Of a stretch of 24,000 nt of DNA, positions 1 to 24,000 are shown piece after piece. The position numbers were made by a program, and so were the translations under genes. Origin of the DNA: Anaerolineales bacterium (GTDB lineage: Bacteria > Chloroflexota > Anaerolineae > Anaerolineales > UBA4823). A model generated the notes under the pieces. That model searched no databases. It was given only the letters and a program-made list of their open reading frames with translations, and was not told the origin of the DNA. Numbering within the stretch: the stretch's first letter is position 1; each line of letters opens with the position of its first letter. Location: assembly GCA_016935755.1 (NCBI GenBank), contig JAFGQI010000076.1:22584-46583 (forward strand), written 5' to 3'.

Positions 1-679
1 CATTCTTGCGCTTTTCCGCGCTGGTGAAGGCGCCTGCCTCGTGGCCGAACAGCTCTGACTCGAGCACGGTGCTCTGGATGGCAGCGCAGTTGATGGCGAC
101 AAAGGGCCGGTTTGCTCGCGGGCCCATCTGGTGGATAGCGTTGGCCAATACTTCTTTGCCGGTGCCTGTCTCGCCGGTGATCAGCACGGATACCGAAGCT
201 TCCGCCGCCCGCTGGGCCTGGTCCACCAGGATCTGCATGGCGGGCGTGGAGCCAACGATGAAATCTAGCTGCTCCTGGCGGGACTGGCGCAGGTGCGCCA
301 GTTCACGGCGCATGGCGACGATTTCTGTCGCTCGCAGGATGGATTTTTCCAGTTGCGCCAGCTTGATCGGCTTTTGCAGGAAGTCATGGGCGCCGTTCTT
401 CATCGCTTCCACCGCCATATCAATGTCGCCGTTGCCAGTGATCAGGATGATCGGTGGGCGCATGGGCAGCGATGCGGTTTCTTCCAGCAGGTGGGGGCCA
501 TGCCCATCGGGGAGCAGCACATCCAGCAGGATAATATCGGCGTTGTTCAATTGGAGACACCGGCGCGCTTCTGCCAATGTGGCTACCCCGATCGTTTCAT
601 AGCCGCGCGGGTTTAGAAAGGTGATGATCTCCTCGCGGGCGTGTTCTTCGTCATCTACAATCAATACGGTTGCGCTCAT
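1..679 (-). CDS. Sigma-54-dependent response regulator (NtrC family bEBP), 5' portion only; the gene continues beyond the left edge
   Basis: Absent from the ORF track because no stop lies in the window. Reverse-strand translation from ATG (679-677) reads MSATVLIVDDEEHAREEIITFLNPRGYE...DIILLDVLLPDGHG (receiver), then ...ASVSVLITGETGTGKEVLANAIHQMGPRANRPFVAINCAAI...ESELFGHEAGAFTSAEKRKN (AAA+ Walker A and a GAFTGA-type sigma-54 contact loop). GAGGGA SD lies 4-5 nt upstream. The start is 8 nt after the upstream kinase stop. Confidence 0.9.
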   Translation of the reverse strand, partial: MSATVLIVDDEEHAREEIITFLNPRGYETIGVATLAEARRCLQLNNADIILLDVLLPDGHGPHLLEETASLPMRPPIILITGNGDIDMAVEAMKNGAHDFLQKPIKLAQLEKSILRATEIVAMRRELAHLRQSRQEQLDFIVGSTPAMQILVDQAQRAAEASVSVLITGETGTGKEVLANAIHQMGPRANRPFVAINCAAIQSTVLESELFGHEAGAFTSAEKRKN

Positions 680-686
680 GGATCCC

Positions 687-6597: not shown

Positions 6598-7830
6598 ATG
6601 CCCGAGTTTCTTCAACTGCTGCCTCCAGGCGAAGCGCTGGAAATATTTCTCAGGGGTTTGACCCACCAGGTGGGAGCTGAGCTGGTGGATACAGCCGAGG
6701 CGCTGGGCCGGGTCACAGCGCAGGCGGTCCAAGCGCCGCACAATCTGCCCACCTTCTCTCGCTCAACCGTGGATGGGTATGCCGTCCGCGCGCAGGATAC
6801 CTATGGCGCCAGCGAGTCGCTCCCGGTTTACCTGCCGGTGGTGGGCGAGGTGTTGATGGGGGCAACTCCCCAGTTCAAACTGGCGGCTGCCCAGTGCGCG
6901 CTGATCCACACCGGAGGCATGCTGCCTGAAGGCGCTAACGCAGTGGTGATGCTGGAACAAACCCAGAGCACTCGTCCCGGTGAAATCGAAGTGCTGCGGG
7001 ATATGGCTGTTGGAGAAAATATCATCAAAGTGGGCGAGGATGTCAGGCAGGGAGAGGAAGTGTTCAAAGCTGGCCTGCGCCTCCGCCCGTCCGAGATTGG
7101 CGGGCTGATGGCGTTAGGTCTGACGCGTCTGCTGGCAGCCAGGCGGCCGCGGGTGGGCATCCTGTCCAGCGGCGATGAGGTTGTGCCACCCGATCAGGAC
7201 ATCTCCCTGGGGCAGGTGCGGGATGTCAACTCTTACAGTCTCAGCGCGCTGGTGGAAGCAAGCGGCGGCATCCCGGTGCGCTATGGCATCCTGCCTGACC
7301 ACGAATCGGCCTTACGAGAGGCGGCGGTCAGGGCGCTGGAGCAATGCGATATGGTGCTGATCACCGCTGGTTCATCTGCCAGCGCGCGCGATCTGACTTC
7401 GCAGGTGATTGAGGCATTGGGCCGCCCGGGGGTGCTGGTGCATGGCGTCAATATCCGACCGGGGAAACCAACGATCCTGGCAGTGTGTGAAGGCAAACCG
7501 GTCATTGGGCTGCCGGGCAATCCGGTCAGCGCCCTGGTGATTGCCCGTTTATTTGTCACCCCGGCCATTGAATGGCTGCTGGGAGTGAGGCAGCCCCGCC
7601 CGCAAGCGGTGGTCACGGCTCGTCTCAGCCTGAATATCCCCTCCCAATCCGGCCGCGAAGATTGGACGCCCGTCCGGCTGCTAGGCAATCCAGGCAGCTA
7701 TACCGCCGAGCCGGTTTTCGGTAAGAGCAATATGATTTTTATCCTGGCGAGGGCGGATGGATTGGTTAAAATTCCTGCTGCGGCGACGGGTTTGACCAGC
7801 GGAGATTTGGTGGAGGTGTATTTATTATGA
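6598..7830 (+). CDS. moeA: Molybdopterin molybdenumtransferase MoeA
   Basis: 410 aa carrying STVDGYAVRA, GGMLPEGANAVV, SSGDEVV, VRDVNSYSL, LITAGSSAS, RPGKP and GLPGNPVSA. Confidence 0.9.
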   Translation: MPEFLQLLPPGEALEIFLRGLTHQVGAELVDTAEALGRVTAQAVQAPHNLPTFSRSTVDGYAVRAQDTYGASESLPVYLPVVGEVLMGATPQFKLAAAQCALIHTGGMLPEGANAVVMLEQTQSTRPGEIEVLRDMAVGENIIKVGEDVRQGEEVFKAGLRLRPSEIGGLMALGLTRLLAARRPRVGILSSGDEVVPPDQDISLGQVRDVNSYSLSALVEASGGIPVRYGILPDHESALREAAVRALEQCDMVLITAGSSASARDLTSQVIEALGRPGVLVHGVNIRPGKPTILAVCEGKPVIGLPGNPVSALVIARLFVTPAIEWLLGVRQPRPQAVVTARLSLNIPSQSGREDWTPVRLLGNPGSYTAEPVFGKSNMIFILARADGLVKIPAAATGLTSGDLVEVYLL

Positions 7831-8237
7831 GCCGGGTGACGGATTTACCCCTGGTGATCTTGCCGGATCGTATGGCGATCTGCCGGCTGCCGGTGGACTC
7901 AGGACAACCGGATTGGGCCAAGCCGGGAGATTTACTGGCCATGGTCTGGACGCGCGATGAACTCAGCCTGGTGTGTCAGGAACGCCTGGTGCCTCCAGAG
8001 GTGCGCGCCGAGCGCGGCTGGCGCCTGCTGCAGGTGCAGGGCAGCCTGGATTTTTCCCTCGTGGGCGTTCTGGCTTCGATTGCGGTGCCCCTCGCCAGAG
8101 CCGGGGTGAGTATATTTGCCATATCAACTTTCGATACCGACTATATCCTGGTCAAAGCCGACTCACTGGAGCGGGCGGTGGATGCGCTTACCCAGGCGGG
8201 TTTCCTGGTGCTGAACTATGTCAATCTATCTACATGA
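7827..8237 (+). CDS. ACT-domain protein (ACT_7-like small-molecule-binding domain)
   Basis: 136 aa. The segment LQVQGSLDFSLVGVLASIAVPLARAGVSIFAISTFDTDYILVKADSLERAV is a typical C-terminal ACT fold signature. ATGA start/stop overlap with moeA. Confidence 0.75.
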   Translation: MSRVTDLPLVILPDRMAICRLPVDSGQPDWAKPGDLLAMVWTRDELSLVCQERLVPPEVRAERGWRLLQVQGSLDFSLVGVLASIAVPLARAGVSIFAISTFDTDYILVKADSLERAVDALTQAGFLVLNYVNLST

Positions 8238-10230
8238 TATCCCTCTGCAAGATGCGCAAACCAGGCTGAAAGCTGCTCTCCAGCAGGTTGGACGCTGGGG
8301 GCTGCTTGGCAGTGAGCAGATTCCTCTGGATGAACAGGCGGTAGGGCGCGTGCTGGCGGAGCCAGTCTGGGCAAAAATCTCCTCGCCGCATTATCACGCC
8401 TCGGCCATGGATGGTTTTGCGCTGCGTTCCCGCCTGACCGATGACGCAATGCCCAACGAACCGGTCACGCTGGTTTGTCAGCCAGATTCAGCCATCTATG
8501 TGGATACTGGTGATCCCTTGCCCGCATGGGCGGATGCGGTCATCCAGATCGAGCAGGTAGAATCATTGGATCAGACCGGCCAGCCGGCCGAAAATCTTCG
8601 CCGCCCGTATGCCATCCGCCTGCGCGCTGCAGTGACCCCCTGGCGCAACGTCCGCCCAATGGGTGAGGATATGGTGGCTACGCAGCTGGTGCTGCCAGCC
8701 GGGCACACATTGCGTCCAGTCGACCTGGGGGCAATCGCTGCCTGTGGGCATCAGATGGCGCAGGTGGCGCTGCGACCGCGTATCGCCATCCTGCCGACCG
8801 GCACAGAACTGGTGGCGGTTGGACAGCCTGTCCAGGCGGGGGATATTATCGAATACAACTCGATCGTGCTGGCGGCGCAGGTGAACCAGTGGGGAGGTCA
8901 GGCCACGCGCTATGCGATTATCCCGGATGACTATGAGATGATTTGCCGGCGCGTGGCGGAAGCAGCCTTGAGCCACGACCTGGTGCTGCTCAATGCTGGC
9001 TCATCGGCGGGTTCGGAAGATTTCTCTGCCAGGGTGGTGGAAAATCTGGGTGAACTGCTGGTGCATGGCGTAGCCGTGCGCCCGGGGCATCCTGTCATCC
9101 TGGGAATGCTGGAGATAGAACGCATTTATCATGCTTTCCCAGAACTGAGGCCGGGATCAGCCACGCCGTGCAGCAGCATTCCAATCATCGGTGTGCCAGG
9201 GTATCCGGTGTCGGCGGCGCTGACAGGCGAAATCTTTGTCGAACCCTTGCTTTCTGTCTGGTTGGGGCGCCCGGCGTATAAACCTGCTCAGGTAAATGCG
9301 ACCCTGACTCGTAAAGTCACCTCCCCAGCAGGAGATGACGATTACTTGCGGGTAGCCGTCGGTCGGGTAGGGGAAAAACTCCTGGCCGCGCCCCTTTCGC
9401 GCGGATCCGGGGTAATCACCTCGCTGGTGCGCGCCGATGGCATCGTCATCATCCCACATGGATCGCAGGGCTTACCAGCCGGGGCGGAGGTGCCGGTGCG
9501 CCTGTACCGCTCACCCGCTGACCTGGAAAATACGATCGTTGCGATCGGATCACATGATATGTGCCTGGATCTGCTGGCGCAATTCCTGGCAGGCCGCGGC
9601 CGCCGTCTGGCTTCTGCCAATGTCGGCAGTCAGGGAGGGCTGGTGGCTTTGCAGCGCGGCGAGGCGCACCTGGCCGGCTCACATCTGCTGGATCCTGAGA
9701 CGGGCGAGTACAACCTGTCCTACATCCGCCAGTATCTGCGCGGGCGCGCGGTGAAGGTAGTCGGGTTCGTTGAACGCCAGCAGGGCTTGTTGGTAAAACG
9801 CGGCAACCCGCGTGGCATCCATTCCTGGCAGGATCTGGCTCGCCCGGAGCTTACATTCGTGAACCGACAGCGCGGGGCAGGCACGCGTGTGCTGTTGGAT
9901 TATCATTTATGTCAGTTAGGGATTGCGCCAGAAGCAATTCGAGGCTACAATCAGGAGGAATTTACACACCTGGCTGTGGCTGCTGCTGTTGCTTCTAACC
10001 GGGCAGATTGCGGCCTTGGGATTGCCGCTGCTGCACAGGCATTGGACCTGGACTTCTTGCCTCTGTTCCAGGAACATTATGAGCTGGTGATTCCTGCAGA
10101 GTTCTACCATGACCGCTTGCTGGAACCGCTGCTGGAAACCCTGGGAGAAGCTGCTTTTCGCCGGGCAGTTGTGGGACTTCCTGGCTACGATGTGGAGCGG
10201 ATGGGTGATTTGATTGCTGAGGTAAGCTAG
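8218..10230 (+). CDS. MoeA paralogue fused to a C-terminal periplasmic-binding-protein-like (PBP_like, ModA/LysR-substrate-type) domain
   Basis: 670 aa. The N-terminal roughly 440 aa carry MoeA blocks (ASAMDGFALRS, LPTGTELV, EYNSIVLA, LLNAGSSAGSED, RPGHP, GVPGYPVSA). The C-terminal roughly 220 aa (IGSHDMCLDLL...GGLVALQRGEAHLAGSHLLDPETGEYN...VNRQRGAGTRVLLD) look like the PBP-like domain seen on some MoeA proteins. The ATG overlaps the ACT gene by 20 nt. Confidence 0.85.
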   Translation: MSIYLHDIPLQDAQTRLKAALQQVGRWGLLGSEQIPLDEQAVGRVLAEPVWAKISSPHYHASAMDGFALRSRLTDDAMPNEPVTLVCQPDSAIYVDTGDPLPAWADAVIQIEQVESLDQTGQPAENLRRPYAIRLRAAVTPWRNVRPMGEDMVATQLVLPAGHTLRPVDLGAIAACGHQMAQVALRPRIAILPTGTELVAVGQPVQAGDIIEYNSIVLAAQVNQWGGQATRYAIIPDDYEMICRRVAEAALSHDLVLLNAGSSAGSEDFSARVVENLGELLVHGVAVRPGHPVILGMLEIERIYHAFPELRPGSATPCSSIPIIGVPGYPVSAALTGEIFVEPLLSVWLGRPAYKPAQVNATLTRKVTSPAGDDDYLRVAVGRVGEKLLAAPLSRGSGVITSLVRADGIVIIPHGSQGLPAGAEVPVRLYRSPADLENTIVAIGSHDMCLDLLAQFLAGRGRRLASANVGSQGGLVALQRGEAHLAGSHLLDPETGEYNLSYIRQYLRGRAVKVVGFVERQQGLLVKRGNPRGIHSWQDLARPELTFVNRQRGAGTRVLLDYHLCQLGIAPEAIRGYNQEEFTHLAVAAAVASNRADCGLGIAAAAQALDLDFLPLFQEHYELVIPAEFYHDRLLEPLLETLGEAAFRRAVVGLPGYDVERMGDLIAEVS

Positions 10231-10233
10231 AAT

Positions 10234-10599
10234 ATGAAAAATGCTCTTGTCATCGACGATAACCGCGACACCGCTGATACGCTGTGTAGAATGTTGGATC
10301 TATTGGATATCAAGGCCGTGGCCGCTTATGGGCCTCGATCTGCCATGGTGATCCTCAAGGAAACACCCCCAGACATCATTTTCCTGGATATCAATATGCC
10401 AGGTGTGGACGGTTTCGAAGTGATGGCTTACCTGCGCCGTATTCCTGATATGAATAATGTCCCGGTTGTTTTTGTCACTTCGGATGATCAGCCGGAGACC
10501 GCCTCCAAGGCTCGCAAAACGGGCGGCTTACTCTTGATTATCAAACCCGTATCGTTTGACGGCTTAGAGTCAGCCTTGCGGAAAGCAGGACTGATTTAG
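10234..10599 (+). CDS. Stand-alone response-regulator receiver (CheY-like)
   Basis: 121 aa carrying ALVIDDNRD, DIIFLDINMPGVDGFEV, VVFVTSDD and LIIKP. The start is 3 nt after the MoeA-PBP stop. Confidence 0.9.
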   Translation: MKNALVIDDNRDTADTLCRMLDLLDIKAVAAYGPRSAMVILKETPPDIIFLDINMPGVDGFEVMAYLRRIPDMNNVPVVFVTSDDQPETASKARKTGGLLLIIKPVSFDGLESALRKAGLI

Positions 10600-10638
10600 C
10601 CATCCCGATTTATCTCTTAGAAGCAAAGAGGAAACCCT

Positions 10639-11097
10639 ATGCCTATCCAAACCGGAATTCAGGCTCCTGATTTTACGTTAAAAGACGAGACAAACATCGC
10701 CCGCAGCTTATCGGATTATCACGGCGCACCTGTGGTGCTGTATTTTTATCCAAAAGACGACACCCCCGGCTGCACCACAGAAGCCTGTAGCTTCCGCGAT
10801 GATTACAGCGCCTACCAACAGGCTGGAGTGGTGATTTTGGGCATCAGCCCGGATTCGCCCAAGAGCCATGCCAGGTTTAAGGCGAAATTTCACCTGCCTT
10901 TTACCTTATTGGCCGATGAAGATCACCAGGTATGCGATCTGTACGATGTTTGGGGTTTGAAGAAGTATATGGGCCGTGAGTATAACGGCGTCTTTCGAAC
11001 GACATTCCTGATCGACTCCCGGGGAAAGATCATCCGCGTGTTTGAAAATGTCAAACCTGCCGATCACAGCGCAGAAGTATTGGCTGCTTTAGCCTGA
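10639..11097 (+). CDS. bcp: Thiol peroxidase / peroxiredoxin Bcp
   Basis: 152 aa. VVLYFYPKDDTPGCTTEACSFRD contains the peroxidatic and resolving Cys in the CxxxxC arrangement typical of Bcp. AGAGGA SD. Confidence 0.9.
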   Translation: MPIQTGIQAPDFTLKDETNIARSLSDYHGAPVVLYFYPKDDTPGCTTEACSFRDDYSAYQQAGVVILGISPDSPKSHARFKAKFHLPFTLLADEDHQVCDLYDVWGLKKYMGREYNGVFRTTFLIDSRGKIIRVFENVKPADHSAEVLAALA

Positions 11098-14649: not shown

Positions 14650-15303
14650 TTATGCTGATGGAGCCTGGGGGATTTCCCCGCGCAGAAGGGCTTCCAGGCG
14701 AGCGACCACCATCTCCATGGCGACCGCGTTCAGCCCTCCTTCAGGAATAATCACATCTGCGTATCGTTTGGATGGTTCGACGAACTCCAGATGCATGGGG
14801 CGCACGGTCGCCAGGTACTGGTGCACAACGTGTTCGGTGGTGCGGCCGCGCTCGTTGATATCTCGGTCTAAACGGCGGATGAAGCGAATATCGCTGTCGG
14901 TGTCCACAAAAACTTTCACATCCAGCAGCTTTCGCAGCGCCGCATCGGCGAAGATCAAGATGCCTTCCACCATGATGACCGGCTGAGGATCGATCCGGCA
15001 GGTCTGGCTGGTGCGGGTATGCGCCTTGAAATCATAAATCGGCAAATCCACGGGCTGGTTGTTTTTCAGCTGGTTAATATGAGCGATGAGCAAATCTGTG
15101 TCCAATGAATTGGGATGGTCGAAGTTTATCGCCAGGCGTTCATTGGGGGGTAAGTCGCTCAAATCTTTATAGTAGGCGTCGTGGGGCAGGTAGGCGATGC
15201 GATCGGCGCCAATCTTTTCCAGAATCAGGTTCGCCAGGGTGGTTTTCCCCGAGCCTGATCCTCCGGCGATGCCGATGACAACAGGGGTTGCATGAATAGG
15301 CAT
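14650..15303 (-). CDS. udk: Uridine kinase
   Basis: Carries VVIGIAGGSGSGKTTLA (P-loop), NFDHPNSLD, YDFKAHTR, VEGILIF and VFVDTDSDIRFIRRLDRDINERGRT. I trimmed the track ORF (which ends at 15405) to ATG 15303, because the longer version runs into the tRNA gene and adds a non-homologous N-terminus. Confidence 0.9.
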   Translation of the reverse strand: MPIHATPVVIGIAGGSGSGKTTLANLILEKIGADRIAYLPHDAYYKDLSDLPPNERLAINFDHPNSLDTDLLIAHINQLKNNQPVDLPIYDFKAHTRTSQTCRIDPQPVIMVEGILIFADAALRKLLDVKVFVDTDSDIRFIRRLDRDINERGRTTEHVVHQYLATVRPMHLEFVEPSKRYADVIIPEGGLNAVAMEMVVARLEALLRGEIPQAPSA

Positions 15304-15309
15304 AATCGA

Positions 15310-15315
15310 ATTATA
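15310..15315 (-). promoter_or_regulatory. Perfect TATAAT -10 hexamer placed for a leaderless udk transcript
   Basis: The minus strand reads CAGTATAATTCGATTATG. The hexamer ends 6 nt before the A of the ATG, with no SD. The -35 element is poor. Confidence 0.4.
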
Positions 15316-15364
15316 CTGGAAGATAGGTACATCTTGAGGTTGAAATCGAGTGCAAATGAGAAGG

Positions 15365-15396
15365 AAAACGGTTTGCCTCCCCCCAAGATGAAACCG
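15365..15396 (-). terminator. Weak candidate terminator after tRNA-Thr
   Basis: The minus strand has CGGTTT and AAACCG (6-bp stem, 16-nt loop) followed by TTTTCCTTCTC. Confidence 0.25.
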
Positions 15397-15399
15397 AAG

Positions 15400-15472
15400 A
15401 GCCACCGAGGAGAATCGAACTCCTGACCTGGCGTTTACGAAACGTCTGCTCTGCCGGCTGAGCTACGGTGGC
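15400..15472 (-). tRNA. tRNA-Thr (anticodon CGU)
   Basis: The 73-nt minus-strand sequence GCCACCG-TA-GCTC-AGCCGGCA-GAGC-A-GACGT-TTCGTAA-ACGCC-AGGTC-AGGAG-TTCGATT-CTCCT-CGGTGGC-T folds as a cloverleaf. It has a 7-bp acceptor stem, perfect D and T stems, a TTCGATT T-loop and one A-C mismatch in the anticodon stem. CCA is not encoded. Confidence 0.87.
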
Positions 15473-15549: not shown

Positions 15550-15579
15550 GGCCAAATCCATTGATCAGTGGAGGCTAGA

Positions 15580-16803
15580 ATGCGTGTGGCGATGTTATCG
15601 TATCATACCTGTCCGATAGCTGCCCTGGGGGGCAAGGATACGGGAGGAATGAATGTGTATGTGCGCGAACTGACCCGCCATCTGGGACAGCTAAACGTTC
15701 AGGTGGATGTTTTTACGCGCTCCCAGGACGAGCACGTGCCCCACGTTTTGCATGATTTGGGCTATGGCAACCGGGTGGTGCATGTGCCTGCTGGCCCAGA
15801 GGTGCCCCTGCCCAAGGAAACCCTGGCTGGTTACCTGCCAGATTTTGTCCGAGGGATCGAAGAGTTTGCTGTCAGCAAAGGACTGCACTATGACTTGATT
15901 CACAGCCATTACTGGATGTCGGGGATCGCGGCGGGAGAGTTGAAAAAGAAATGGCAGGCGCCAGTCGTGCACATGTTCCATACGCTTGGGATCATGAAGC
16001 AGCGTGTTGCTCGGGATGCTGCTGAGGTCGAGGGGGAGTATCGGTTATTGGGCGAGCGGCGTGTGCTTGAATTGGCGGATCGCGTCGTCGCGGCGACTCC
16101 AGCGGAGCTGGCTCAACTGCAGTGGTTATACCAGGCGAACACCAGCAAGGTGGTGATCATCCCGCCTGGGGTGGATATCAGCCATTTCTACCCCATCCCG
16201 GCAGATGAAGCAAAGGAGTATATCGGCGTAGCGCCTTGTGAGAGGGTCTTGCTGTATGTCGGTCGCATCGAACCGTTGAAAGGCATTGATACCTTGATCC
16301 AGGCGATTGCCATCATGCGAGAGCAGGGAGTAGTCGTATGCCTGTCGTTGATCGGGGGTGGGGCAGATAGCGGCGGGCCGGAGAACAAGGAGCAAATCCG
16401 CCTGCAGGAAATGCGCCATCAGGCTGGCCTTACAGGGATGGTAGCCTTTCTGGGCAAGCGTGGGCAGGATACTTTACCTTATTATTATTCAGCCGCGGAA
16501 GCAGTTGTTGTGCCTTCTCACTATGAATCATTTGGCATGGTCGCTTTGGAGGCCATGGCTTGCGGCGCACCTGTAGTCGCCTCGCAGGTGGGTGGGCTGG
16601 CGTTTTTGGTGAAGGATGGTGTGACTGGTTTCACCGTGCCAGTGGATGATCCTCAAGCGTTGGCAGATACGCTCATCCGCCTTTTCCAGGATCCGGAGCT
16701 GCGCAGCCGGTTGGGCCGCCAGGCTGCTCTGGCAGCCAGGGAGTATGCCTGGGAGAACATTGCCGCCCGGATGAGAGACTTGTATAACGAAGTTGCCCGC
16801 TAA
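15580..16803 (+). CDS. GT4-family glycosyltransferase, MshA-like (D-inositol-3-phosphate glycosyltransferase-like)
   Basis: The N-terminus VAMLSYHTCPIAALGGKDTGGMNVYVRELTRHLG resembles the MshA signature. The C-terminal GT-B block is VVPSHYESFGMVALEAMACGAPVVAS. I prefer ATG 15580 (GGAGG SD 5 nt upstream) over the track's GTG 15568. Confidence 0.85.
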   Translation: MRVAMLSYHTCPIAALGGKDTGGMNVYVRELTRHLGQLNVQVDVFTRSQDEHVPHVLHDLGYGNRVVHVPAGPEVPLPKETLAGYLPDFVRGIEEFAVSKGLHYDLIHSHYWMSGIAAGELKKKWQAPVVHMFHTLGIMKQRVARDAAEVEGEYRLLGERRVLELADRVVAATPAELAQLQWLYQANTSKVVIIPPGVDISHFYPIPADEAKEYIGVAPCERVLLYVGRIEPLKGIDTLIQAIAIMREQGVVVCLSLIGGGADSGGPENKEQIRLQEMRHQAGLTGMVAFLGKRGQDTLPYYYSAAEAVVVPSHYESFGMVALEAMACGAPVVASQVGGLAFLVKDGVTGFTVPVDDPQALADTLIRLFQDPELRSRLGRQAALAAREYAWENIAARMRDLYNEVAR

Positions 16804-17936
16804 TCGTGCGGCTGCCAGCCATCGGTTGGCAGTCCAGCTGGGCGCAGCCAGCTCAAAAACCCCCCGGTTGAAGTTTTGGAGGGCGGTTTTTTTTCTAATC
16901 CCACCAGCCCCAGGCTGACGACTAATAAGATTGCCCCACCCCACTGCGCCGCAGTGAACCGCTCTCCAAGCCACAGGTAAGCAAAGAACACGGTCACCAG
17001 CAGTTCGCTCAGGCCGAGCAGGGCTGTTTGCATCCCGCCCAGGTGCTTCACGCCTGTGAACAGGGTGAGGCGGGAAAGAAAGGTGACCATTGTCAGGCCA
17101 AGCACAGGCCAGATAGGCAGTTGGGTAGAGGTAGAACCGGCTGTGAGTGTGCCAGGCGTAACCATCTGGCCCAGATTAAATGAACCCGAAAAGATATAGG
17201 TCGGCACGACCACCATACTCATGGCAAACAGCGTATAAAGGGTCACTGTGGGGGGCGGCATGTCCAACAGCACGCGCTGGTTGATCGGCAGGTGGAGCGC
17301 ATAGAGCGCGGCGGAGATAAGCATTTCCACAATGCCGATGATATAGGCAGTCTGATCGGGGCCGGCTGAGTTCTGTTCGGCGCTGATGCGGCCCATGGCA
17401 AGCAGCACGATTGCTGGCAGCGCCAGGCTTAAACGAATCATCGTCAGGCGGGTGGTGGGTTGGTGATCCAGAGCCAACCAGAGCAGCAAGAACAGTGGAT
17501 AGAGCGAATACAGCAGCTGTCCAACTCCCGCGCCTATGTTGCTCAGAGCAGAGTAATAGAATAAGGATCCCAAACCATTGATCCAACCGGCCAGCAGACA
17601 GCCGAGCAAACCAGCGGGATAGATGTACAGGAAAGGGCGATAAAAGAAAAACATCAACGCGAGCAAGAGCAGACTTGCCAGTGCAGTGCGCCAGGCGACC
17701 ACCGCCAGAGGGCTGAGCCCAAGCAGGATGGCCTGGCGACCGAATACAGGCGCTAACCCCAGGAAGAATGCCGAAGCCAGAGCCGCTAAGATGCCCGTTC
17801 GCCTCGCCTTGTCTATTGGCTTCCGTTCTGAGACGGTTTTGCTGTGGCGAGGAGCTTCTTTTGCTCCGGGGGGCGATTCTGTCATGGCAGGCGGATCGCC
17901 CTCGAGGGGTGGATGCTGCTCTGGGAGCGCTGACAT
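16800..17936 (-). CDS. EamA/DMT-superfamily transporter with hydrophilic N- and C-terminal extensions
   Basis: 378 aa, about 10 TM helices in two EamA-like halves (GILAALASAFFLGLAPVFGRQAI...; ...LGERFTAAQWGGAILLVVSLGLV). The ATG is 2 nt after the upstream gene's TAA, with an AGGA SD. Its stop overlaps the convergent GT4 stop. Confidence 0.85.
   Translation of the reverse strand: MSALPEQHPPLEGDPPAMTESPPGAKEAPRHSKTVSERKPIDKARRTGILAALASAFFLGLAPVFGRQAILLGLSPLAVVAWRTALASLLLLALMFFFYRPFLYIYPAGLLGCLLAGWINGLGSLFYYSALSNIGAGVGQLLYSLYPLFLLLWLALDHQPTTRLTMIRLSLALPAIVLLAMGRISAEQNSAGPDQTAYIIGIVEMLISAALYALHLPINQRVLLDMPPPTVTLYTLFAMSMVVVPTYIFSGSFNLGQMVTPGTLTAGSTSTQLPIWPVLGLTMVTFLSRLTLFTGVKHLGGMQTALLGLSELLVTVFFAYLWLGERFTAAQWGGAILLVVSLGLVGLEKKPPSKTSTGGFLSWLRPAGLPTDGWQPHD
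16855..16894. terminator. Weak bidirectional-terminator-like element (A5-C6 ... GGAGGG-CGG-T8) inside the EamA 3' coding tail
   Basis: CCCCCC (16860-16865) can pair with GGAGGG (16878-16883) with one mismatch. An A5 run lies upstream and a T8 run downstream. The element sits 52 nt after the GT4 stop. Confidence 0.3.
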
Positions 17937-17938
17937 GG

Positions 17939-19858
17939 TTAATCCTGCATAGATGGATTGGCTTCCTGCTCACCGGCTCCGCCAGTTAGCTGGCGGACTT
18001 CTTCTAACAAATCATCGCTGAGGAACTGCCCCTTTTGCATCAGGGTATCAATCTGTCCGCTCAAGCGCTCCTTTTCACGCGAGGTTAGTTCCTTGGCGGT
18101 GACAACAATGACAGGTATCGATGCTGTGTGTGGGTTGGCTTTAAGAGCATCCAGAACGGTAAACCCATCCATTTCGGGCATCATCAGATCCAGCAGAATG
18201 ACATCGGGCAGCTGGTCTAAATACTGCTCACGCGTCATCTGTACACCTGGCCTGTGTTCTGACACCATCTCCAGCGCTTCGCTGCCGCTGGCGGCTTCCA
18301 GGATGGTGTAGTTGCCCTGGGATTGCAGGATGCGCCGGATGAGGCGGCGTGCATGTTCGGTGTCATCCACGATCAGTACGCGGGGGGTGTGTTCCTGTCC
18401 GGGCAGCCCTGGGGTGACCCGGCTGAGCGCGGCCAGCAGTCCTTCCTGGTCTGGGCCAGCGGAGACGGCTGGGCGTTCTTCCGGTAAGGTTTCTGTTGGT
18501 CGTCCCGCCGCCGGTACAGGCGGCGCTTTTCTGCGTTCCTCCAGCTCGGAGGGAAGCACCACATTGCGCGCCCACCCCTCGCCCAGGATGCTCGTCTCGA
18601 TCGGCATCGTATGACCGGTGCAGTTCACCGCAATGACCTCGCTTGGTTTGATCACCCCGGCGCGGATCAATTTGATCAAACCGGCGAAAGCTACTGCTGC
18701 AGCCGGCTCGATCGAAATACCCTCCAGCTTGGCTACCAGGTGCATCGCCCGGAAGGCTTCTTCGTCTGTTACGCTTTCAAAAACGCCGCGCCTTGCCCCT
18801 TCCCTTTCTTCCCACGGGATAAGCTCTTCCAGTTGGGATTCATTATCCGCTGTTTGGGGAGCTGATACAACCCCACCGTTCAAGATGCGCTGGCGCAGCA
18901 GGGTATAAGTCCGTCCGGGATCGCCTGTTGCCAGTGTGGCAATGTGTGTGTTGGGTGAAGTAACAGGCTCGGCCACAGCTTTGTTTTCTCGCCAGGCGCG
19001 TACCATGGGCGAGCAGCCCTCCACCTGGATGATCGCCATGGCGGGTGTCTGCTTGCCTATCAGGCCTAACTGCTGCAGTTCGTAGAAACCCTTCTGGACT
19101 CCGAGCGGGCCCATTCCGCCACTGACCGATTGAATATACCAATCGGGGGAAACCCAGTTCAGCTGCTCGCAGATTTCGAAGGCGATGGTCTTCATCGCCT
19201 CAACAGAGGGGATAGAACGAGCGCCGCGTTCCAGATACAGGTTGCGCTGGCGGGCATATTCAGCAGCCAGTTTTTTCGTCTGATCATACGTGGCGGTGAC
19301 TTTGACTACCTGAGTTCCATAGATGGCTACTTCGCGCATTTTTTCGGCCGGCACCAGGCTGGTCAGAAACGCCCACAGCTTGATGCCTGCCCGGGCGGCA
19401 TAGGCGGCATAAGCAATGGCGACATTGCCCGTGGAGGCCAGCACGATCTCGGTGACGCCAGCCTCTTTCAAGGCCGCGATGTTCACGGCTGCCTGGCGGT
19501 CTTTGAACGAGCAGGTTGGTCCCTGGCGTTCATCTTTGATATACAGGTTGGGGCATCCCAACATCATGCCCAGGTTAGTCGCCCGGATGAGAGGGGTTGC
19601 CCCTTCGCCCATGTAAAGGGAAGGGTTGTTATCGTAGACCGGGAGCAGTTCGCCATAACGCCAAAGGTTCATGGGCCGCGCCGTGACCCGCTGGCGGAAA
19701 ATATCTCCTGTCAGGGCTGGTTGGAAGGTATAGCGCGCTTGCAGCCACTGGCCCTGGCAGGCTGGACAGGCGGTCAGCGTAGCTGAATAAACTGCCTGAT
19801 GCCCGCAGTCCAGGCATTCTACCCATATATTGCGGATTAGATCTTTTGCTTCAGGCAC
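17939..19858 (-). CDS. Threonine-synthase-like fold-type-II PLP enzyme with an N-terminal Cys4 ribbon and a C-terminal response-regulator receiver domain
   Basis: 639 aa. Ribbon is CLDCGH-X11-CPAC (aa 15-34). PLP lysine motif is PTCSFKDRQA (K119), with ASTGNVA, SVSGGMGPLG and NCTGHT. A Pro/Glu-rich linker spans about aa 440-490. The receiver spans aa 493-620. GTG start with an AGGAG SD 6 nt upstream. Confidence 0.85.
   Translation of the reverse strand: MPEAKDLIRNIWVECLDCGHQAVYSATLTACPACQGQWLQARYTFQPALTGDIFRQRVTARPMNLWRYGELLPVYDNNPSLYMGEGATPLIRATNLGMMLGCPNLYIKDERQGPTCSFKDRQAAVNIAALKEAGVTEIVLASTGNVAIAYAAYAARAGIKLWAFLTSLVPAEKMREVAIYGTQVVKVTATYDQTKKLAAEYARQRNLYLERGARSIPSVEAMKTIAFEICEQLNWVSPDWYIQSVSGGMGPLGVQKGFYELQQLGLIGKQTPAMAIIQVEGCSPMVRAWRENKAVAEPVTSPNTHIATLATGDPGRTYTLLRQRILNGGVVSAPQTADNESQLEELIPWEEREGARRGVFESVTDEEAFRAMHLVAKLEGISIEPAAAVAFAGLIKLIRAGVIKPSEVIAVNCTGHTMPIETSILGEGWARNVVLPSELEERRKAPPVPAAGRPTETLPEERPAVSAGPDQEGLLAALSRVTPGLPGQEHTPRVLIVDDTEHARRLIRRILQSQGNYTILEAASGSEALEMVSEHRPGVQMTREQYLDQLPDVILLDLMMPEMDGFTVLDALKANPHTASIPVIVVTAKELTSREKERLSGQIDTLMQKGQFLSDDLLEEVRQLTGGAGEQEANPSMQD
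17942..18382 (-). other. Receiver (REC) domain portion of the PLP-enzyme fusion
   Basis: RVLIVDDTEHARRL..., DVILLDLMMPEMDGFTV (phospho-acceptor Asp context), IPVIVVTAKE and DTLMQKGQF. It lies in the same frame as the PLP domain with no intervening stop. Confidence 0.8.
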
Positions 19859-19905
19859 AGATTCTCCTAGGTGGCATTTTATGCTATAGAATGGACGGCA
19901 GGATT

Positions 19906-19940
19906 TGCCTGGGGCATAAATGGCTTTTATACCCCAGGCA
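19906..19940 (-). promoter_or_regulatory. 15-bp stem-loop / palindrome between the hybrid kinase gene and the PLP-REC gene
   Basis: TGCCTGGGGCATAAA (19906-19920) pairs with TTTATACCCCAGGCA (19926-19940). The single C-A mismatch on the plus strand becomes a G-U pair on the minus-strand RNA. The loop is 5 nt. No U-tract follows on either strand. Confidence 0.5.
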
Positions 19941-19996
19941 TGGGTGGTCTATTGGAAGTCTGGTGCAGAACTGGTGGTTTTCACCTGATTGTCCGT

Positions 19997-22900
19997 TTAT
20001 GAGGCCGGTGGACGATGTGCACAGGCCATTACTGCCTGCACAAATTCTTCTTGCAGAATAGGCTTCATCAAGTAAGTTGTCGCTCCCGTGCTCAGAGCTT
20101 TATCTTTTTGATCCATAACTGAGGTGGCAATCACAGGTATCTGATGTGTTTGGGGATCGGAGCGGATGGTTTCAAGCACCTGCCAGCTATTGGGCATAGA
20201 AACATCCAGGGTGATGGCATAAGGCTGCAAGCCCTTGGCAATTTCGATCGCTTTTGGAACAGATTCGCTGGACAGGTCAGTGATGCCAACCACTGAGAAT
20301 TGAGGACTGTCTGGGCCGCGGTCAGAAGAGGAGAGATACCTGCGGTAAAGATCAATCACTTGTGAATCGATATCAATCGAAAGGATGGTAAGAACCCCGG
20401 CTTTCACAGAGGGAGCCGCTGTGGTCTGGTCCTCAACTGGCGCGCGCTTCTTATCTTTCTTGGCAGGCGGCTCCAGAACACTGGCAGGGGCTGTTTCTGG
20501 CAGGTTTTCAATTCCTGCTAGTTGGGTTGCACCTTCTGGGATGGGCAATGTGAAGTAGAAGGTGCTGCCCTGACCAACCTGGCTGTCTACTCCAATCTGT
20601 CCGCCATGCAGATGGATGAGATGAGAGGAGATTGAGAGGCCCAAACCAGATCCCCCGGTCTTGCGAGTGAGTGAACCATCTACCTGGGAGAAGGGTTGGA
20701 ACAGCTTGGATTGGTCTTCTAAGGTGATGCCTGGGCCAGTGTCGATCACTCGCACTACGATCGCCTGCAAGGAGGAAGGTGGGCCTTTCTTGGCTCTTCC
20801 GCTTAGCAGCTCGGGGTACATCTCCGCATCTACTGGTTCAATACTGGCTTTGACAGTGATCGTGCCTCGTTCGGTGAACTTGGCTGCATTTGAGAATAGA
20901 TTGATCAGCACCTGGCGGATCTTCATCGTATCGATCCGCACAAATGGCAGTTGAATGTCAACCTCGTTTTGCAGCGTGATCGGTTTATCTTTCACCAGGC
21001 CGATCATGGTTGACATCACACTCTTGATCAAGTCGCCCAGGCTCACGTTCTCCTCAAAGGCCAGCTCCATCTTACCAGCCTCAATCTTGGACAGGTCGAG
21101 AACATCATTGATCAGACCCAGCAGGTGTTGGCCGGAGTTGTAGATGGCTGATAGGTCTTGCTGCTGCAGGTCGGTTGTTGGGCCGTCGATGCCCTTCAGG
21201 ATCACGCGCGAGAAACCGATAATCGAGTTCAAGGGCGTGCGCAGCTCGTGGCTCATATTCGCCAGGAACTGGCTCTTCAGTCGGTCTGCCTCACGGATTT
21301 CTTCCACAGCGTGCTGGGCGATTTCATAAGCACGCGCGTTTTCTACCGCAACTGCAATCTGGTCAGCCAGAGTTTGCAGCACGGCGATATCATCGGGCGT
21401 GAAAGCATCCACCTGGGAGGCCTGTACATCCAACGCCCCAATCACCTCCAATTGAGTTGCTCCACCTCGTCCGATCTTGAGCGGGATGCCCAACTCTGCT
21501 TTCGTCAACGGCAGGAGTGGGTTGGGGCGGTGCACCAGGCGGGCCTGCTCCTGGCTGATATCGTTCAGCACCAACGACTGGCCATTCAGCGTCACCTGAC
21601 CGATCACGGAGCGGCTGCCCACTTCCAGGCTGTGGCCGCTGTTAATCATTTCTTCTCCCGCCTGTCCGGTGGAGGCGCGTACGATTGCCCGGCGTCCACT
21701 TTCATCAACCAGAAAGATGGATGCATGGTAGTAGCCGAAACGCTCAATCAAAAGGTTGACCAGGCGTGCAAGCAGGTCGTCCAACGCCAGGGTGCCAGAG
21801 CTATCACGGGCAATCTCGGCAGCCGTCTGCAGCTGGCTGGCGCGTCGTTGGGACTCATCCAGCAGGCGCAGGTTTTGGATGGCTACGGCGGCTTGCCCGG
21901 CCAGCGACATCAGCCGGCGAGTCTCTTGTTCAGGGAAGGAGGTCATCTGGCGAAATGCGCCAATTACCTGCCCGATCCACTGCCCAGCCACATTCAACGG
22001 CGCCAGGATCAGGCTCTTAGCGCCGATTTGGTCGATATACACAGCCCGGGCAGCCTCGTCCAGCCGGGCGTCGGTGGTTGTGTCCAGGATGGTGCTGGCC
22101 CGGTCAGGCTGCATGAGCAGTTCGGCATTCGTCCATTGGGATAGAGGATAACGATTGGGGTGATGCCCGGCCTCAGCACCAGTCCAACTCGCTACCGGAA
22201 ACATCCATTCTGGGCGGTCGGAGCGAGTCCAGGGCTGGTCGAATAAGTTAATCGTCACACTGGTGGCATGCACCTGGCCGAGCACCGTATGCTGGCGTAA
22301 GACGTTCAAGATGTCATCGTAGCTGGCTGCGGAGTTCAACCTGGCGCTGGCCTGGTAGAGCGCTTCAGTTTCGGCCAGGTTGATCTGCACCTGGGTGAAC
22401 AGGTCTTCGCGGGCGATGGTGTTCGCCAGAGCTGATGCGGCGGTTTGCAGAGCAGCGATTTCTTCAGCGCTCCAACGGCGTTCATAGTCATACTGTTCCA
22501 GGCCGATGCAGCCTGGCGCTTCCTGGCGACCGGGGATGGCAAACTGCAGCACTGCACGTGGGGCCTGGGCCGTTGAGGCCGGTTCACCAAGTGTGCCTGC
22601 CCTGCCAGGGGTTCTGCGTCCCAGCTGAGTTTTTTGCCAAAGGTTATCTCTACCGGTATCTGCCAGTCCGGTGAGTTCTTCGGGGAGTTCTCCCGCCAGG
22701 GCGGAAATATACCCTTTGCTGCTGAGCTTTTCCAGCCAGGGGCCGATCAGGCTGATGGGCAAGCGGCGCAGAGTGGGGTTGCCCAACTGAGCCGGCACTT
22801 CAGGTGCGCACCATTCGGAAATCAGCCGCCAGTAGGGGCCGCGCGCGTCCACCTGAGTTTCGAAGTAGTAGGTCCGGCTGGCCTGGGATGCCTCGCCCAG

Positions 22901-23638
22901 GGTGCGTAAAACATCCGCCAGGGCTGCTATGCCTCTTTCGGTCAGCGTTGTAACGGCCTGGGCGACGCTTTTCTGATATCGTTCGCTGACAGCCAGAGCC
23001 TGCAGGGCTGACTGGGTCTCCTGAAACAGACGGGCATTTTCCAACGCCAGACTGAGTTGATCAGTGACCTGTTCAACCAGCAGGATTTCATCCTCGCTCC
23101 AGGTGCGCTGGGGCGTATCATCCATGACTTCCAGGAGCAAGGCTGGCTGGGTCAGGGCATCTGCAAGCTGGCCGGAAGCGGACCCATCTGCTGACGCATC
23201 ACCTTTGGATGATGAACTCCATTCCAGCAGCGGTCGCGCATAAGCCAGAATGGCTTGATCTTCAGCGGTGGCGGGCAGGGCAATCGGCGTGCCGCGGCGT
23301 AAACTTTCCCAGCCAGCCGAGGTGAGTCCTGTGACGTTGCTGCCTATGGTGCTAAGCCCCTGTTCTTCTCCGGCTTCCCGGTCAGCAACGCTGATCGCTG
23401 CGCCTGGCTCAAGGATCGGCCGTTGCTTGGAAGTGATCTGCGTCGATGGAGTTGGCCCGGGCTGCCCATCACCAGGGATGGGGGGCTGGGGAGCGATGGG
23501 CGCAGCAGAGGTCGCCGGTTCCATTGGAGCAAGATCCGCTCCCAGGCTTGTGAACAACTGCTCGATGCGAGACTCGTTGGCAGGGCTTTTTACCGCTGGT
23601 GACTCAGTTTTTTCTTTTTTCTTCTTTACCGTTGGCAT
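19997..23638 (-). CDS. Soluble hybrid sensor histidine kinase: disordered N-terminus, four tandem GAF-like modules, HisKA, HATPase_c and a C-terminal receiver
   Basis: 1213 aa with no TM segment. H-box is SQFLANMSHELRTPLNSIIGF (H797). N-box is INLFSNAAKFT. G-boxes are DTGPGIT and GGSGLGLSIS. The receiver carries ILSIDIDSQ, AITLDVSMP (D1145), VIATSV and LMKP. Each GAF module ends in a recurring helix, for example TWSEDEILLVEQVTDQLSLALENARLFQ and FTPDDIAVLQTLADQIAVAVENARAYE. AGGAG SD. Confidence 0.9.
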   Translation of the reverse strand: MPTVKKKKEKTESPAVKSPANESRIEQLFTSLGADLAPMEPATSAAPIAPQPPIPGDGQPGPTPSTQITSKQRPILEPGAAISVADREAGEEQGLSTIGSNVTGLTSAGWESLRRGTPIALPATAEDQAILAYARPLLEWSSSSKGDASADGSASGQLADALTQPALLLEVMDDTPQRTWSEDEILLVEQVTDQLSLALENARLFQETQSALQALAVSERYQKSVAQAVTTLTERGIAALADVLRTLGEASQASRTYYFETQVDARGPYWRLISEWCAPEVPAQLGNPTLRRLPISLIGPWLEKLSSKGYISALAGELPEELTGLADTGRDNLWQKTQLGRRTPGRAGTLGEPASTAQAPRAVLQFAIPGRQEAPGCIGLEQYDYERRWSAEEIAALQTAASALANTIAREDLFTQVQINLAETEALYQASARLNSAASYDDILNVLRQHTVLGQVHATSVTINLFDQPWTRSDRPEWMFPVASWTGAEAGHHPNRYPLSQWTNAELLMQPDRASTILDTTTDARLDEAARAVYIDQIGAKSLILAPLNVAGQWIGQVIGAFRQMTSFPEQETRRLMSLAGQAAVAIQNLRLLDESQRRASQLQTAAEIARDSSGTLALDDLLARLVNLLIERFGYYHASIFLVDESGRRAIVRASTGQAGEEMINSGHSLEVGSRSVIGQVTLNGQSLVLNDISQEQARLVHRPNPLLPLTKAELGIPLKIGRGGATQLEVIGALDVQASQVDAFTPDDIAVLQTLADQIAVAVENARAYEIAQHAVEEIREADRLKSQFLANMSHELRTPLNSIIGFSRVILKGIDGPTTDLQQQDLSAIYNSGQHLLGLINDVLDLSKIEAGKMELAFEENVSLGDLIKSVMSTMIGLVKDKPITLQNEVDIQLPFVRIDTMKIRQVLINLFSNAAKFTERGTITVKASIEPVDAEMYPELLSGRAKKGPPSSLQAIVVRVIDTGPGITLEDQSKLFQPFSQVDGSLTRKTGGSGLGLSISSHLIHLHGGQIGVDSQVGQGSTFYFTLPIPEGATQLAGIENLPETAPASVLEPPAKKDKKRAPVEDQTTAAPSVKAGVLTILSIDIDSQVIDLYRRYLSSSDRGPDSPQFSVVGITDLSSESVPKAIEIAKGLQPYAITLDVSMPNSWQVLETIRSDPQTHQIPVIATSVMDQKDKALSTGATTYLMKPILQEEFVQAVMACAHRPPAS

Positions 23639-23657
23639 AGTAAATCAACTCCTACGC

Positions 23658-24000
23658 TCAGTAGGTGCGGGACTCGGGCAGGTGCATGGCAGTGGAACTC
23701 TGCTCTTGGGCTTCTTTGCCACTGGTGAACTGCATTTCTGGGTGGTGTGTCTTTGTCAGTGCGATCAATTCTTGAGCCAGGGCATCATATTGTAAGGCGC
23801 TGCGGCTGGGCGTTGAGCGTCTGGGGCTGCGGTAATGGGTGATTGGTTTGCCTTCGACGGCGCTCTCCCGCAGCCGGGTGTCGATTTCGATAATCGTTTG
23901 GAAGACGCCCTCGGCAAAAGCATGTCGAATTTGCTCATTGACCTGGCGGTGGATGCGGTTGCGCCTGTCAAACATGGTGACCAGGATACGATAGGTCAGG
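23658..24000 (-). CDS. ParA/MinD-family P-loop ATPase, C-terminal part only; the gene continues beyond the right edge
   Basis: The frame is open to the window edge (LTYRILVTMFDRRNRIHRQVNEQIRHAFAEGVFQTIIEIDTRLRESAVEGKPITHY...YDALAQELI). This matches the ParA/Soj C-terminal half (TMYD-R-N...V...IP.N.RL.EA...G.P). A roughly 30-aa non-conserved tail follows. The stop is 19 nt before the kinase ATG. Confidence 0.8.
   Translation of the reverse strand, partial: LTYRILVTMFDRRNRIHRQVNEQIRHAFAEGVFQTIIEIDTRLRESAVEGKPITHYRSPRRSTPSRSALQYDALAQELIALTKTHHPEMQFTSGKEAQEQSSTAMHLPESRTY

Follow-up and report, generated by a model that had tools for sequence, protein, structure and literature searches.

The stretch of DNA analysed here, called the window throughout, comprises 24,000 nucleotides (nt) of an Anaerolineales bacterium contig (JAFGQI010000076.1, positions 22,584 to 46,583). 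Toward its end, four adjoining minus-strand genes encode, in reading order, a ParA/Soj-type ATPase, a hybrid histidine kinase, a threonine-synthase-family (ThrC) pyridoxal phosphate (PLP) enzyme fused to a receiver domain (PALP-REC), and an EamA transporter (Table 1). A previous interpretation made without database searches, the sequence-only reading, had grouped these genes as one cluster, and the open reading frame (ORF) list, Pfam and NCBIfam placed all four at exactly the coordinates that it gave. The junctions that it listed matched the sequence as well. The ParA stop codon is 19 nt from the kinase ATG, which is preceded by AGGAG; the kinase stop is 138 nt from the PALP-REC GTG (19858), with a Shine-Dalgarno AGGAG 5 nt before the GTG; and the PALP-REC and EamA genes meet as TAA-CC-ATG (2 nt), with AGGA 6 nt before the EamA ATG.

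Table 1. Features of the four-gene cluster. Positions are those of the window; aa, amino acids.
Feature	Position	Strand	Description
EamA/DMT (drug/metabolite transporter) gene	16800-17936	minus	378 aa; ORF list and Pfam
ThrC-family PALP+REC fusion gene	17939-19858	minus	639 aa, GTG start
Receiver domain of the enzyme, aa 491-625	17984-18388	minus	PF00072, 69.6 bits against a cut-off of 30.2
Acceptor Asp D557	codon 18188-18190	minus	Alignment of the family
Linker, aa 417-490	18389-18610	minus	Predicted disordered; motifs ILGEGWxRxV and QEGLLAALSRVT
Fold-type II PLP catalytic domain, aa 83-416	18611-19612	minus	AlphaFold2 (AF2) model confident
Schiff-base lysine K119	codon 19502-19504	minus	SFKDRQ invariant
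N-terminal Cys4 zinc ribbon (C15, C18, C31, C34)	19757-19816	minus	Invariant in A1, at least 90% conserved in A2
Kinase/PALP-REC intergenic gap, 138 nt	19859-19996	minus	Junction reading
Hybrid histidine kinase gene	19997-23638	minus	1213 aa, ATG start
Receiver of the kinase, aa 1085-1203	20030-20386	minus	Response_reg, 29.9 bits in the whole protein, 34 bits isolated
Kinase core: HisKA aa 788-855 (H-box SHELRTPL), HATPase_c aa 903-1034	20537-21277	minus	HisKA 76.7 bits, HATPase_c 87.5 bits
Sole GAF above the Pfam cut-off, kinase aa 618-766	21341-21787	minus	GAF_2 79 bits, GAF 74.5 bits
N-terminal kinase peptide MPTVKKKKEK...ESRIEQLFTSL	23539-23638	minus	Window version of M[SP]KK-x(3-6)-[KN]RL-x-x-LF-x-[DG]
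ParA/Soj-type ATPase gene, 3' end (last 113 codons)	23658->24000	minus	Frame read; rest beyond the window

One genome per GTDB species was scanned, and at least 594 of these species-level genomes encode a relative of the fusion protein. The best 80 loci, those most similar to the query, were compared by tblastn and by clustering of all their ORFs, and gene order was counted only at loci whose contig extends far enough. The 120 best homologues of the fusion protein share 58-66% identity with it and all contain both PALP and REC. The enzyme gene is immediately preceded by the kinase gene, on its own strand, in 70 of 70 loci and immediately followed by the EamA gene, again on this strand, in 71 of 73. 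A ParA/Soj ATPase gene (261 aa) directly precedes the kinase gene in 50 of 64 loci, and sensors without an output domain stand upstream of ParA in 50 of 52. By comparison, the window's other neighbours (genes for a GT4 glycosyltransferase, a uridine kinase, a cyclophilin, a DedA/VTT-family protein and an M20 peptidase) recur in only 2-3 of the 80 loci. Because these neighbours have been reshuffled while the core stayed in place, the core appears to have been kept by selection and not by recent common descent; with the cluster conserved and the surrounding genes not, the arrangement exceeds chance. Adjacency in related genomes, on which the sequence-only reading had staked its model, is thus what was found.

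The spacing of the orthologous genes is operon-like, with median gaps of 18.5 nt between kinase and enzyme and 24.5 nt between enzyme and EamA, and with the ParA gene overlapping the kinase start by ~32 nt in most loci. All 80 loci come from Anaerolineae-type metagenome-assembled genomes (MAGs) except one that is probably misbinned. That locus (L080) is labelled Lewinellaceae (Bacteroidota) yet has a complete Anaerolineae-type operon at 57% identity, which points to a probable error of binning when its MAG was assembled.

More remote relatives were compared with these loci. In a distant fused subfamily (Aggregatilineales and others, ~548 aa), ThrC-REC, EamA and an adjacent kinase were found in 4 of 4 loci examined, which further supports treating the cluster as a conserved unit. 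In this subfamily the kinase takes one of two forms, a giant GAF kinase encoded upstream or a small REC-kinase between enzyme and EamA; the latter, a REC-HisKA-HATPase gene of 415-422 aa, was observed in L083, L085 and L086, and L086 has a single-domain receiver gene just upstream besides. The nearest unfused relatives (395-426 aa) share the active-site signature and stand in unrelated neighbourhoods. Since neither a kinase nor an EamA gene adjoins them, the linkage to these two genes goes with the receiver fusion. One of their contigs carries a photosynthetic reaction-centre gene and another LptC, so they come from other phyla; L081 is probably cyanobacterial, given its Photo_RC gene. The genes of the nearest unfused relatives (395-396 aa), in L081 (10001-13940) and L088 (5951-10206), adjoin a DUF2301 gene on one side and, on the other, a convergent pair encoding a transporter of the sodium:dicarboxylate-symporter family and an amino-acid-binding SBP_bac_3 protein. 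Here, too, an enzyme is paired with a transporter.

The NCBI entry of the window's fusion protein reads 'threonine synthase [Anaerolineales bacterium]'. Pfam recognised PALP (205 bits, 1.6e-60) and Response_reg (69.6 bits, 3e-19) in it. The enzyme has a fold-type II PLP core with the S-F-K-D-R lysine K119, present and invariant in the family, and keeps the STGN loop, the TGH motif and the Cys4 zinc ribbon, the last being common to the whole PRK08197-like group of ThrC homologues. Threonine synthases are its nearest solved sequences and, when the AF2 model was compared with Foldseek, its nearest folds (TM-score 0.81-0.83). The cysteate synthase CapA2 was among the structural matches.

The substrate-binding residues set the family apart from solved threonine synthases. 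Five of five solved ThrCs (Aquifex, Bacillus, Mycobacterium, Thermus and Arabidopsis) carry N-S-x-N-x-x-R-x-E-G-Q-K-T and G-N-x-G-N, with a carboxylate loop that reads STGNT in the four bacterial enzymes and STGDT in Arabidopsis. The fusion family has instead ERGARSIPSVEAMKT (E-R-G-A-R-S-I-P-S-V-E-A-M-K-T), SGGxGP and STGNVA. Residues T88, N154, S155, R160 and N188 of the T. thermophilus enzyme correspond to V146, R211, G212, S218 and G248 in the window enzyme; these five are identical in the four bacterial solved ThrCs, and Arabidopsis deviates only at the neighbouring residue of the STGDT loop. We take the five T. thermophilus residues to be the holders of the O-phosphohomoserine phosphate, which presumably joins catalysis; the phosphate contacts of this enzyme were reportedly described by Omi in 2003 and by Murakawa in 2011.

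The cut-off of the threonine synthase model TIGR00260 (167.1 bits) was reached by one of 20 family members, the window's own (171 bits), with the family scoring ~140-180; a zinc-ribbon homologue with canonical ThrC motifs scored 336 bits. None of the 20 reached the PRK08197 cut-off of 303 (window protein 246 bits). The window enzyme scored 161 bits against a cut-off of 421 for PRK05638, and 120 bits against 324.9 for the cysteate synthase model TIGR03844. Because the phosphate-site residues are replaced and the curated cut-offs are missed, we did not file the fusion protein as a threonine synthase, and it does not appear to be a canonical one. On the same grounds, the step from a ThrC-like enzyme to a threonine-like product is not supported. 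The reaction probably differs from the canonical conversion of O-phosphohomoserine to threonine; more likely it is a beta/gamma replacement or elimination of another kind, with an anionic amino acid as the substrate. ThrC homologues include enzymes of other reactions, e.g. MetM, and are commonly misannotated as ThrC (preprint 10.1101/2024.10.14.618325). A non-canonical cyanobacterial ThrC lineage has also been described, with up to three ThrC paralogues per genome (PMC12172450).

C-terminal to the catalytic domain, AF2 gave a predicted local distance difference test score (pLDDT) below 50 over aa 416-470 of the linker. Both A1 and A2 keep the two linker motifs; the unfused relatives lack them and end right after GHTxPVE. 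Because the unfused proteins stop just before this point, the linker motifs and the receiver look like one appended regulatory module. By its residues the enzyme's receiver is fully canonical: its phospho-acceptor set is complete (D498/D499, D557, T587 and K609), each position being invariant or at least 90% conserved. It also carries a 14-aa insertion specific to the window's lineage. K609 is followed by Gly, not Pro, and AF2 modelled this stretch as a helix (pLDDT 60-70).

The domains of the kinase were assigned with Pfam and NCBIfam on the whole protein and on isolated segments. It is a soluble protein that opens with a basic N-terminal peptide and a low-complexity stretch; GAF-like modules, HisKA and HATPase_c come next, and a single degenerate receiver closes it. 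It had been called a four-GAF kinase, and one GAF (aa 618-766) does pass Pfam; a second (~aa 510-600) falls below the cut-off, two more are seen only as GAF-type terminal helices, and segments 1-213, 200-426 and 410-610 gave no or sub-threshold matches. In the kinase's own receiver, SIDID replaces the IDDD acidic pair and the loop past the acceptor Asp is shortened. Two C-terminal receivers are present in 69 of 78 orthologous kinases, and one in the window and in its closest relative, L009. No Hpt domain was found by Pfam in the window kinase or in the orthologues examined. Because the genes are inherited together and, by prediction, transcribed together, the adjacent kinase is the likely phosphodonor for the enzyme's receiver. 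The sequence-only reading had considered it the obvious donor. A kinase that adjoins the enzyme gene at every scorable locus makes this plausible, but orthologues that mostly carry two receivers of their own, and no Hpt, make it less than obvious.

The window holds only the C-terminal 113 aa of the ParA-like ATPase, with the P-loop beyond its edge, and this fragment gave no significant family match of its own. The full-length orthologues (261 aa) match AAA_31 with 167 bits and carry a deviant Walker A, KGGVAKTT; their nearest solved relatives are the ParA/Soj structures 8ray and 1wcv (~1e-43). The naming of the fragment as ParA-like rests on these orthologues, which are Soj-type ATPases at the same position.

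A role for ParA in organising the kinase, also proposed earlier, gains modest support from the overlap of the two genes and from the conserved basic peptide at the kinase N-terminus. ParA partners usually contact their ATPase through basic N-terminal peptides on disordered tethers. When 51 orthologue N-termini were aligned by eye, a conserved basic peptide was found in the orthologous kinases, followed by ~100-150 low-complexity residues. We regard it as a candidate ParA-contact peptide; it presumably resembles the ParA-activating N-terminus of ParB/Spo0J, and a solved-structure search with the peptide gave no match. The probable function of ParA is to position the kinase or to partition it between cells.

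The genes upstream of ParA lie outside the window and are described from orthologous loci. They encode two to four tandem paralogous sensors with dCache or multiple transmembrane segments, HAMP, a coiled coil and GAF, and with no kinase or output domain (e.g. L013 1-5127 and L064 2-6429). All 126 sensors end in a conserved tail, ENARL.EETQ.RAERER.VSEIT.KIRS..DP...LQTA..EL..AL, which looks like the first helices of a GAF domain. Past its disordered stretch, the kinase starts with the apparent last GAF strands and helix, W..DE..L..QVTDQLSLALENARLFQE. Together, the sensor tail and the kinase half-GAF might serve for docking or might have been left behind by gene fission.

The EamA protein contains two EamA repeats (PF00892, 83.8 bits, 1.7e-23) and ~10 hydrophobic segments by hydropathy. 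Searches for this protein returned no NCBIfam equivalog and no solved relative, so the suggestion that export of threonine/homoserine or cysteine/O-acetylserine follows from its likeness to RhtA/EamA could not be upheld.

The gap between the kinase and PALP-REC genes contains the hairpin reported in the sequence-only reading. The hairpin (19906-19940) has a 15-bp perfect stem and a 5-nt loop, and the folding of the gap gave z = -2.96 against shuffled sequences. The gap itself is the longest of 78 orthologous gaps. Loss of the second kinase receiver is common to the window and L009, and the 138-nt gap with its hairpin belongs to the window only. The long gap and hairpin are thus a lineage-specific outlier and not part of the general system. 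An intrinsic terminator or riboswitch was rejected for the hairpin: it lacks a U-tract, the terminator scan gave no call there, the 138-nt gap matched no Rfam family, and the element is not conserved. Long kinase-enzyme gaps with strong hairpins were also observed in L028 (-37.5 kcal/mol) and L042 (-31.7 kcal/mol), non-homologous to that of the window, and structured inserts seem to recur at this junction.

Taken with the conserved gene order and the operon-like spacing, the domain content and the intact catalytic and phospho-acceptor residues suggest the output end of a two-component operon conserved in Anaerolineae, in which the response regulator has a PLP enzyme as its output and works together with a transporter. 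We are about equally inclined to accept and to doubt this reading. The soluble GAF-type hybrid histidine kinase, which in orthologous operons comes after two to four output-less membrane sensors and the ParA/Soj ATPase, would autophosphorylate, and the phosphoryl group would pass to Asp557 of the receiver at the C-terminus of the threonine-synthase-family enzyme. Phosphorylation of D557 would then switch the enzyme allosterically, as C-terminal regulatory domains do in other fold-type II PLP enzymes. The EamA carrier, predicted to be translationally coupled, would move the enzyme's product or substrate across the membrane. From sequence and gene order we infer the phosphotransfer route and the allosteric control in this scheme, and likewise its direction of transport, its product and the part played by ParA.

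Several observations weigh against this scheme. Since most orthologous kinases have two receivers of their own and lack Hpt, the enzyme's receiver need not be phosphorylated directly. The linker is disordered in the AF2 model and the alpha4-beta5 part of the receiver has moderate confidence, so the model offers no docking geometry to back allostery. Conserved basic residues R111 and K/R214 could rebuild a phosphate site and keep O-phosphohomoserine as a possible substrate. The search for a further ThrC covered the 10-kb flanks of 81 loci, and the absence of a second ThrC within them is uninformative either way. The substrate of EamA is not predictable from sequence.

Alternative explanations of the fusion were weighed on the same evidence. 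The fusion could be the organism's threonine synthase, with the receiver tuning threonine supply from O-phosphohomoserine and with EamA as an RhtA-like threonine/homoserine overflow exporter, which is essentially the model of the sequence-only reading; we consider this a minority possibility, though one to be taken seriously. The closest solved sequences and folds are threonine synthases, and an identity of 55-66% across the class suits a core enzyme. The window protein narrowly passes TIGR00260 (171 against 167.1 bits), but a genuine zinc-ribbon ThrC reaches 336 bits where the fusion family gives ~140-180. Its nearest unfused relatives pass PRK08197 (305-307 against 303 bits), and one unfused relative (L082) sits among housekeeping genes; the fused loci, however, have no conserved hom or thrB neighbour within 10 kb. 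Four of the five phosphate-contact positions (T. thermophilus N154, S155, R160, N188 and T88) are replaced in every member of the family, which speaks against O-phosphohomoserine, although the non-canonical cyanobacterial ThrC lineage is still active on this substrate in vitro (PMC12172450), and ThrC homologues are often misannotated (preprint 10.1101/2024.10.14.618325). Such mislabelling extends to MetM homologues (preprint 10.1101/2024.10.14.618325; PMC12172450), and the enzyme could accordingly be MetM-like, forming homocysteine from O-phosphohomoserine and a thiocarboxylated carrier, or cysteate-synthase-like. The enzyme does belong to the zinc-ribbon ThrC-homologue group, with PRK08197 as its best model and CapA2 among its structural matches, but a small MetO/ThiS-like gene was not among the conserved neighbours in 81 loci, and the score with the cysteate synthase model stays far below the cut-off (120 against 324.9 bits). 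We therefore find a reaction of either kind very improbable.

Two further explanations concern the receiver and the gene order. The enzyme's receiver could act as a phosphate sink or branch point, like an extra CheY, exerting no control over the enzyme, so that the fusion merely ties the abundance of the sink to that of the enzyme. The linker is long and predicted to be disordered, the kinase usually has two receivers, one of them resembling that of the enzyme (34% identity), and in the distant subfamily further REC and REC-kinase genes surround the enzyme gene, all of which a sink would accommodate. A free single-domain receiver would serve equally well as a sink, however, while conservation of the fusion with its two linker motifs extends over at least hundreds of species and the linkage to kinase and EamA is found only with the fused forms; we judge a sink distinctly unlikely. 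Adjacency might also be inherited gene order with no functional coupling, as the loci all belong to a single class and the 80 compared were the ones closest to the query. Yet the window's remaining neighbours have all been reshuffled (2-3 of 80) while the core stays, a subfamily whose kinases are arranged differently retains the core, and stops and starts overlap or nearly abut, so that we give this explanation hardly any credence.

The reading that we prefer, a response regulator with PLP-enzyme output beside a transporter, can be carried further. In an array-like signalling machine, several output-less membrane sensors would feed a single soluble, ParA-positioned kinase, the PLP-enzyme response regulator would when phosphorylated make a non-proteinogenic amino-acid-like compound, and EamA would export it, the compound then serving as an intercellular signal or public good among the cells of these filamentous bacteria. 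We hold this extension to be unlikely. Were it true, a PLP enzyme would for the first time be the output of a response regulator, and phospho-Asp would for the first time gate the synthesis of a signal directly.

Other features of the window were recorded separately. The EamA gene and a convergent GT4 glycosyltransferase gene (15568-16803, plus strand) overlap by 4 nt at their 3' ends (16800-16803), which leaves no space for a terminator between them. A tRNA-Thr(CGU) gene lies at 15399-15472 on the minus strand, 1.3 kb downstream of the ThrC-like gene. A functional link between this tRNA and a 'threonine' enzyme was rejected; apart from the window, only its two closest relatives (L009 and L010) have the tRNA nearby, and the synteny is coincidental. 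The longest uridine-kinase ORF (14650-15405) overlaps the tRNA gene, so the true start of that gene is probably further downstream. Positions 1-3787 hold co-directional minus-strand genes for sigma-54 (2279-3787), a PAS histidine kinase (687-2282) and a response regulator with REC and sigma-54-activator domains (1-679, cut by the window edge). On the plus strand, 6598-10599 encodes MoeA (6598-7830), an ACT_7 protein (7827-8237), a MoeA-PBP_like fusion (8218-10230) and a single-domain receiver (10234-10599), and the ends of these genes overlap or abut. The interval 10001-11000 has a lower GC content (0.51) and contains peroxiredoxin and cytochrome c genes.

The outputs of two-component systems are nearly always transcription, the turnover of second messengers or motility. 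If a response regulator had a PLP-dependent amino-acid enzyme as its output and were tied to a transporter, signalling would reach amino-acid chemistry and flux directly. At least several hundred species carry the fusion, and their class is abundant in digesters, sediments and wastewater. Its database label, 'threonine synthase', is not backed by the active-site residues, which matters for metabolic reconstructions and for auxotrophy predictions in these uncultured organisms.

The literature search returned no description of a receiver-ThrC-family fusion and no relevant work on Anaerolineae threonine synthases. Each component has precedents, namely response regulators with enzymatic output, PLP enzymes carrying an appended regulator, exporters of the DMT family and ParA genes within signalling operons; their combination as seen here was not described in the literature searched. 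With threonine synthase (EC 4.2.3.1; TIGR00260; 1UIM/1V7C, 2ZSJ, 6CGQ, 2D1F and 1E5X) the fusion family shares the PLP fold, the SFKDR lysine, the STGN loop and the TGH motif. It differs in that NSxNPxR, EGQKT and GNxGN of threonine synthase become ERGARSIPS, EAMKT and SGGxGP, in the added N-terminal zinc ribbon and C-terminal linker and receiver, and in that 19 of 20 members fall under the TIGR00260 cut-off. MetM and cysteate synthase belong to the same broad ThrC-homologue family and are routinely annotated 'threonine synthase'. An N-terminal zinc ribbon marks the group of ThrC homologues recovered here. In contrast to MetM, the fusion gene does not have a MetO-like sulfur-carrier gene as a conserved neighbour, and the enzyme's score with the cysteate synthase model is far under the cut-off.

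Appended regulatory modules are familiar among fold-type II PLP enzymes, as in the C-terminal ACT-like domain of IlvA, the Bateman module of cystathionine beta-synthase and the N-terminal domain of plant ThrC that responds to S-adenosylmethionine. The fusion likewise consists of a catalytic core and a regulatory module, and its unfused relatives end exactly where the module starts; the effector of the known enzymes is a metabolite, whereas covalent phosphorylation by a kinase would regulate here. Response regulators with enzymatic output, such as the CheB methylesterase, the PleD and WspR diguanylate cyclases and RpfG, similarly have a canonical receiver fused to an enzyme and a histidine kinase adjoining, and the expected logic would be the same, control of catalysis by phospho-Asp. 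They differ in that the output here is a PLP-dependent amino-acid enzyme and the receiver is C-terminal rather than N-terminal. The E. coli DMT exporters RhtA and EamA (YdeD) have two EamA repeats and ~10 transmembrane segments like the window's EamA, which is paired with an amino-acid enzyme gene; the window's protein has no equivalog-level match and no solved relative. Chemosensory ParA systems (Vibrio ParC with ParP and CheA; Rhodobacter PpfA with TlpT) also place a Soj-type ParA gene in a signalling operon. Here, the ParA gene precedes or overlaps the kinase gene, and the kinase has a basic peptide and a disordered stretch like those of ParA partners, with the contact being putative. The kinase is of the GAF/HisKA type and not a CheA, and there are no genes for methyl-accepting chemotaxis proteins or CheW. 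The operon presents a histidine kinase as a candidate new cargo for a ParA-type positioning ATPase.

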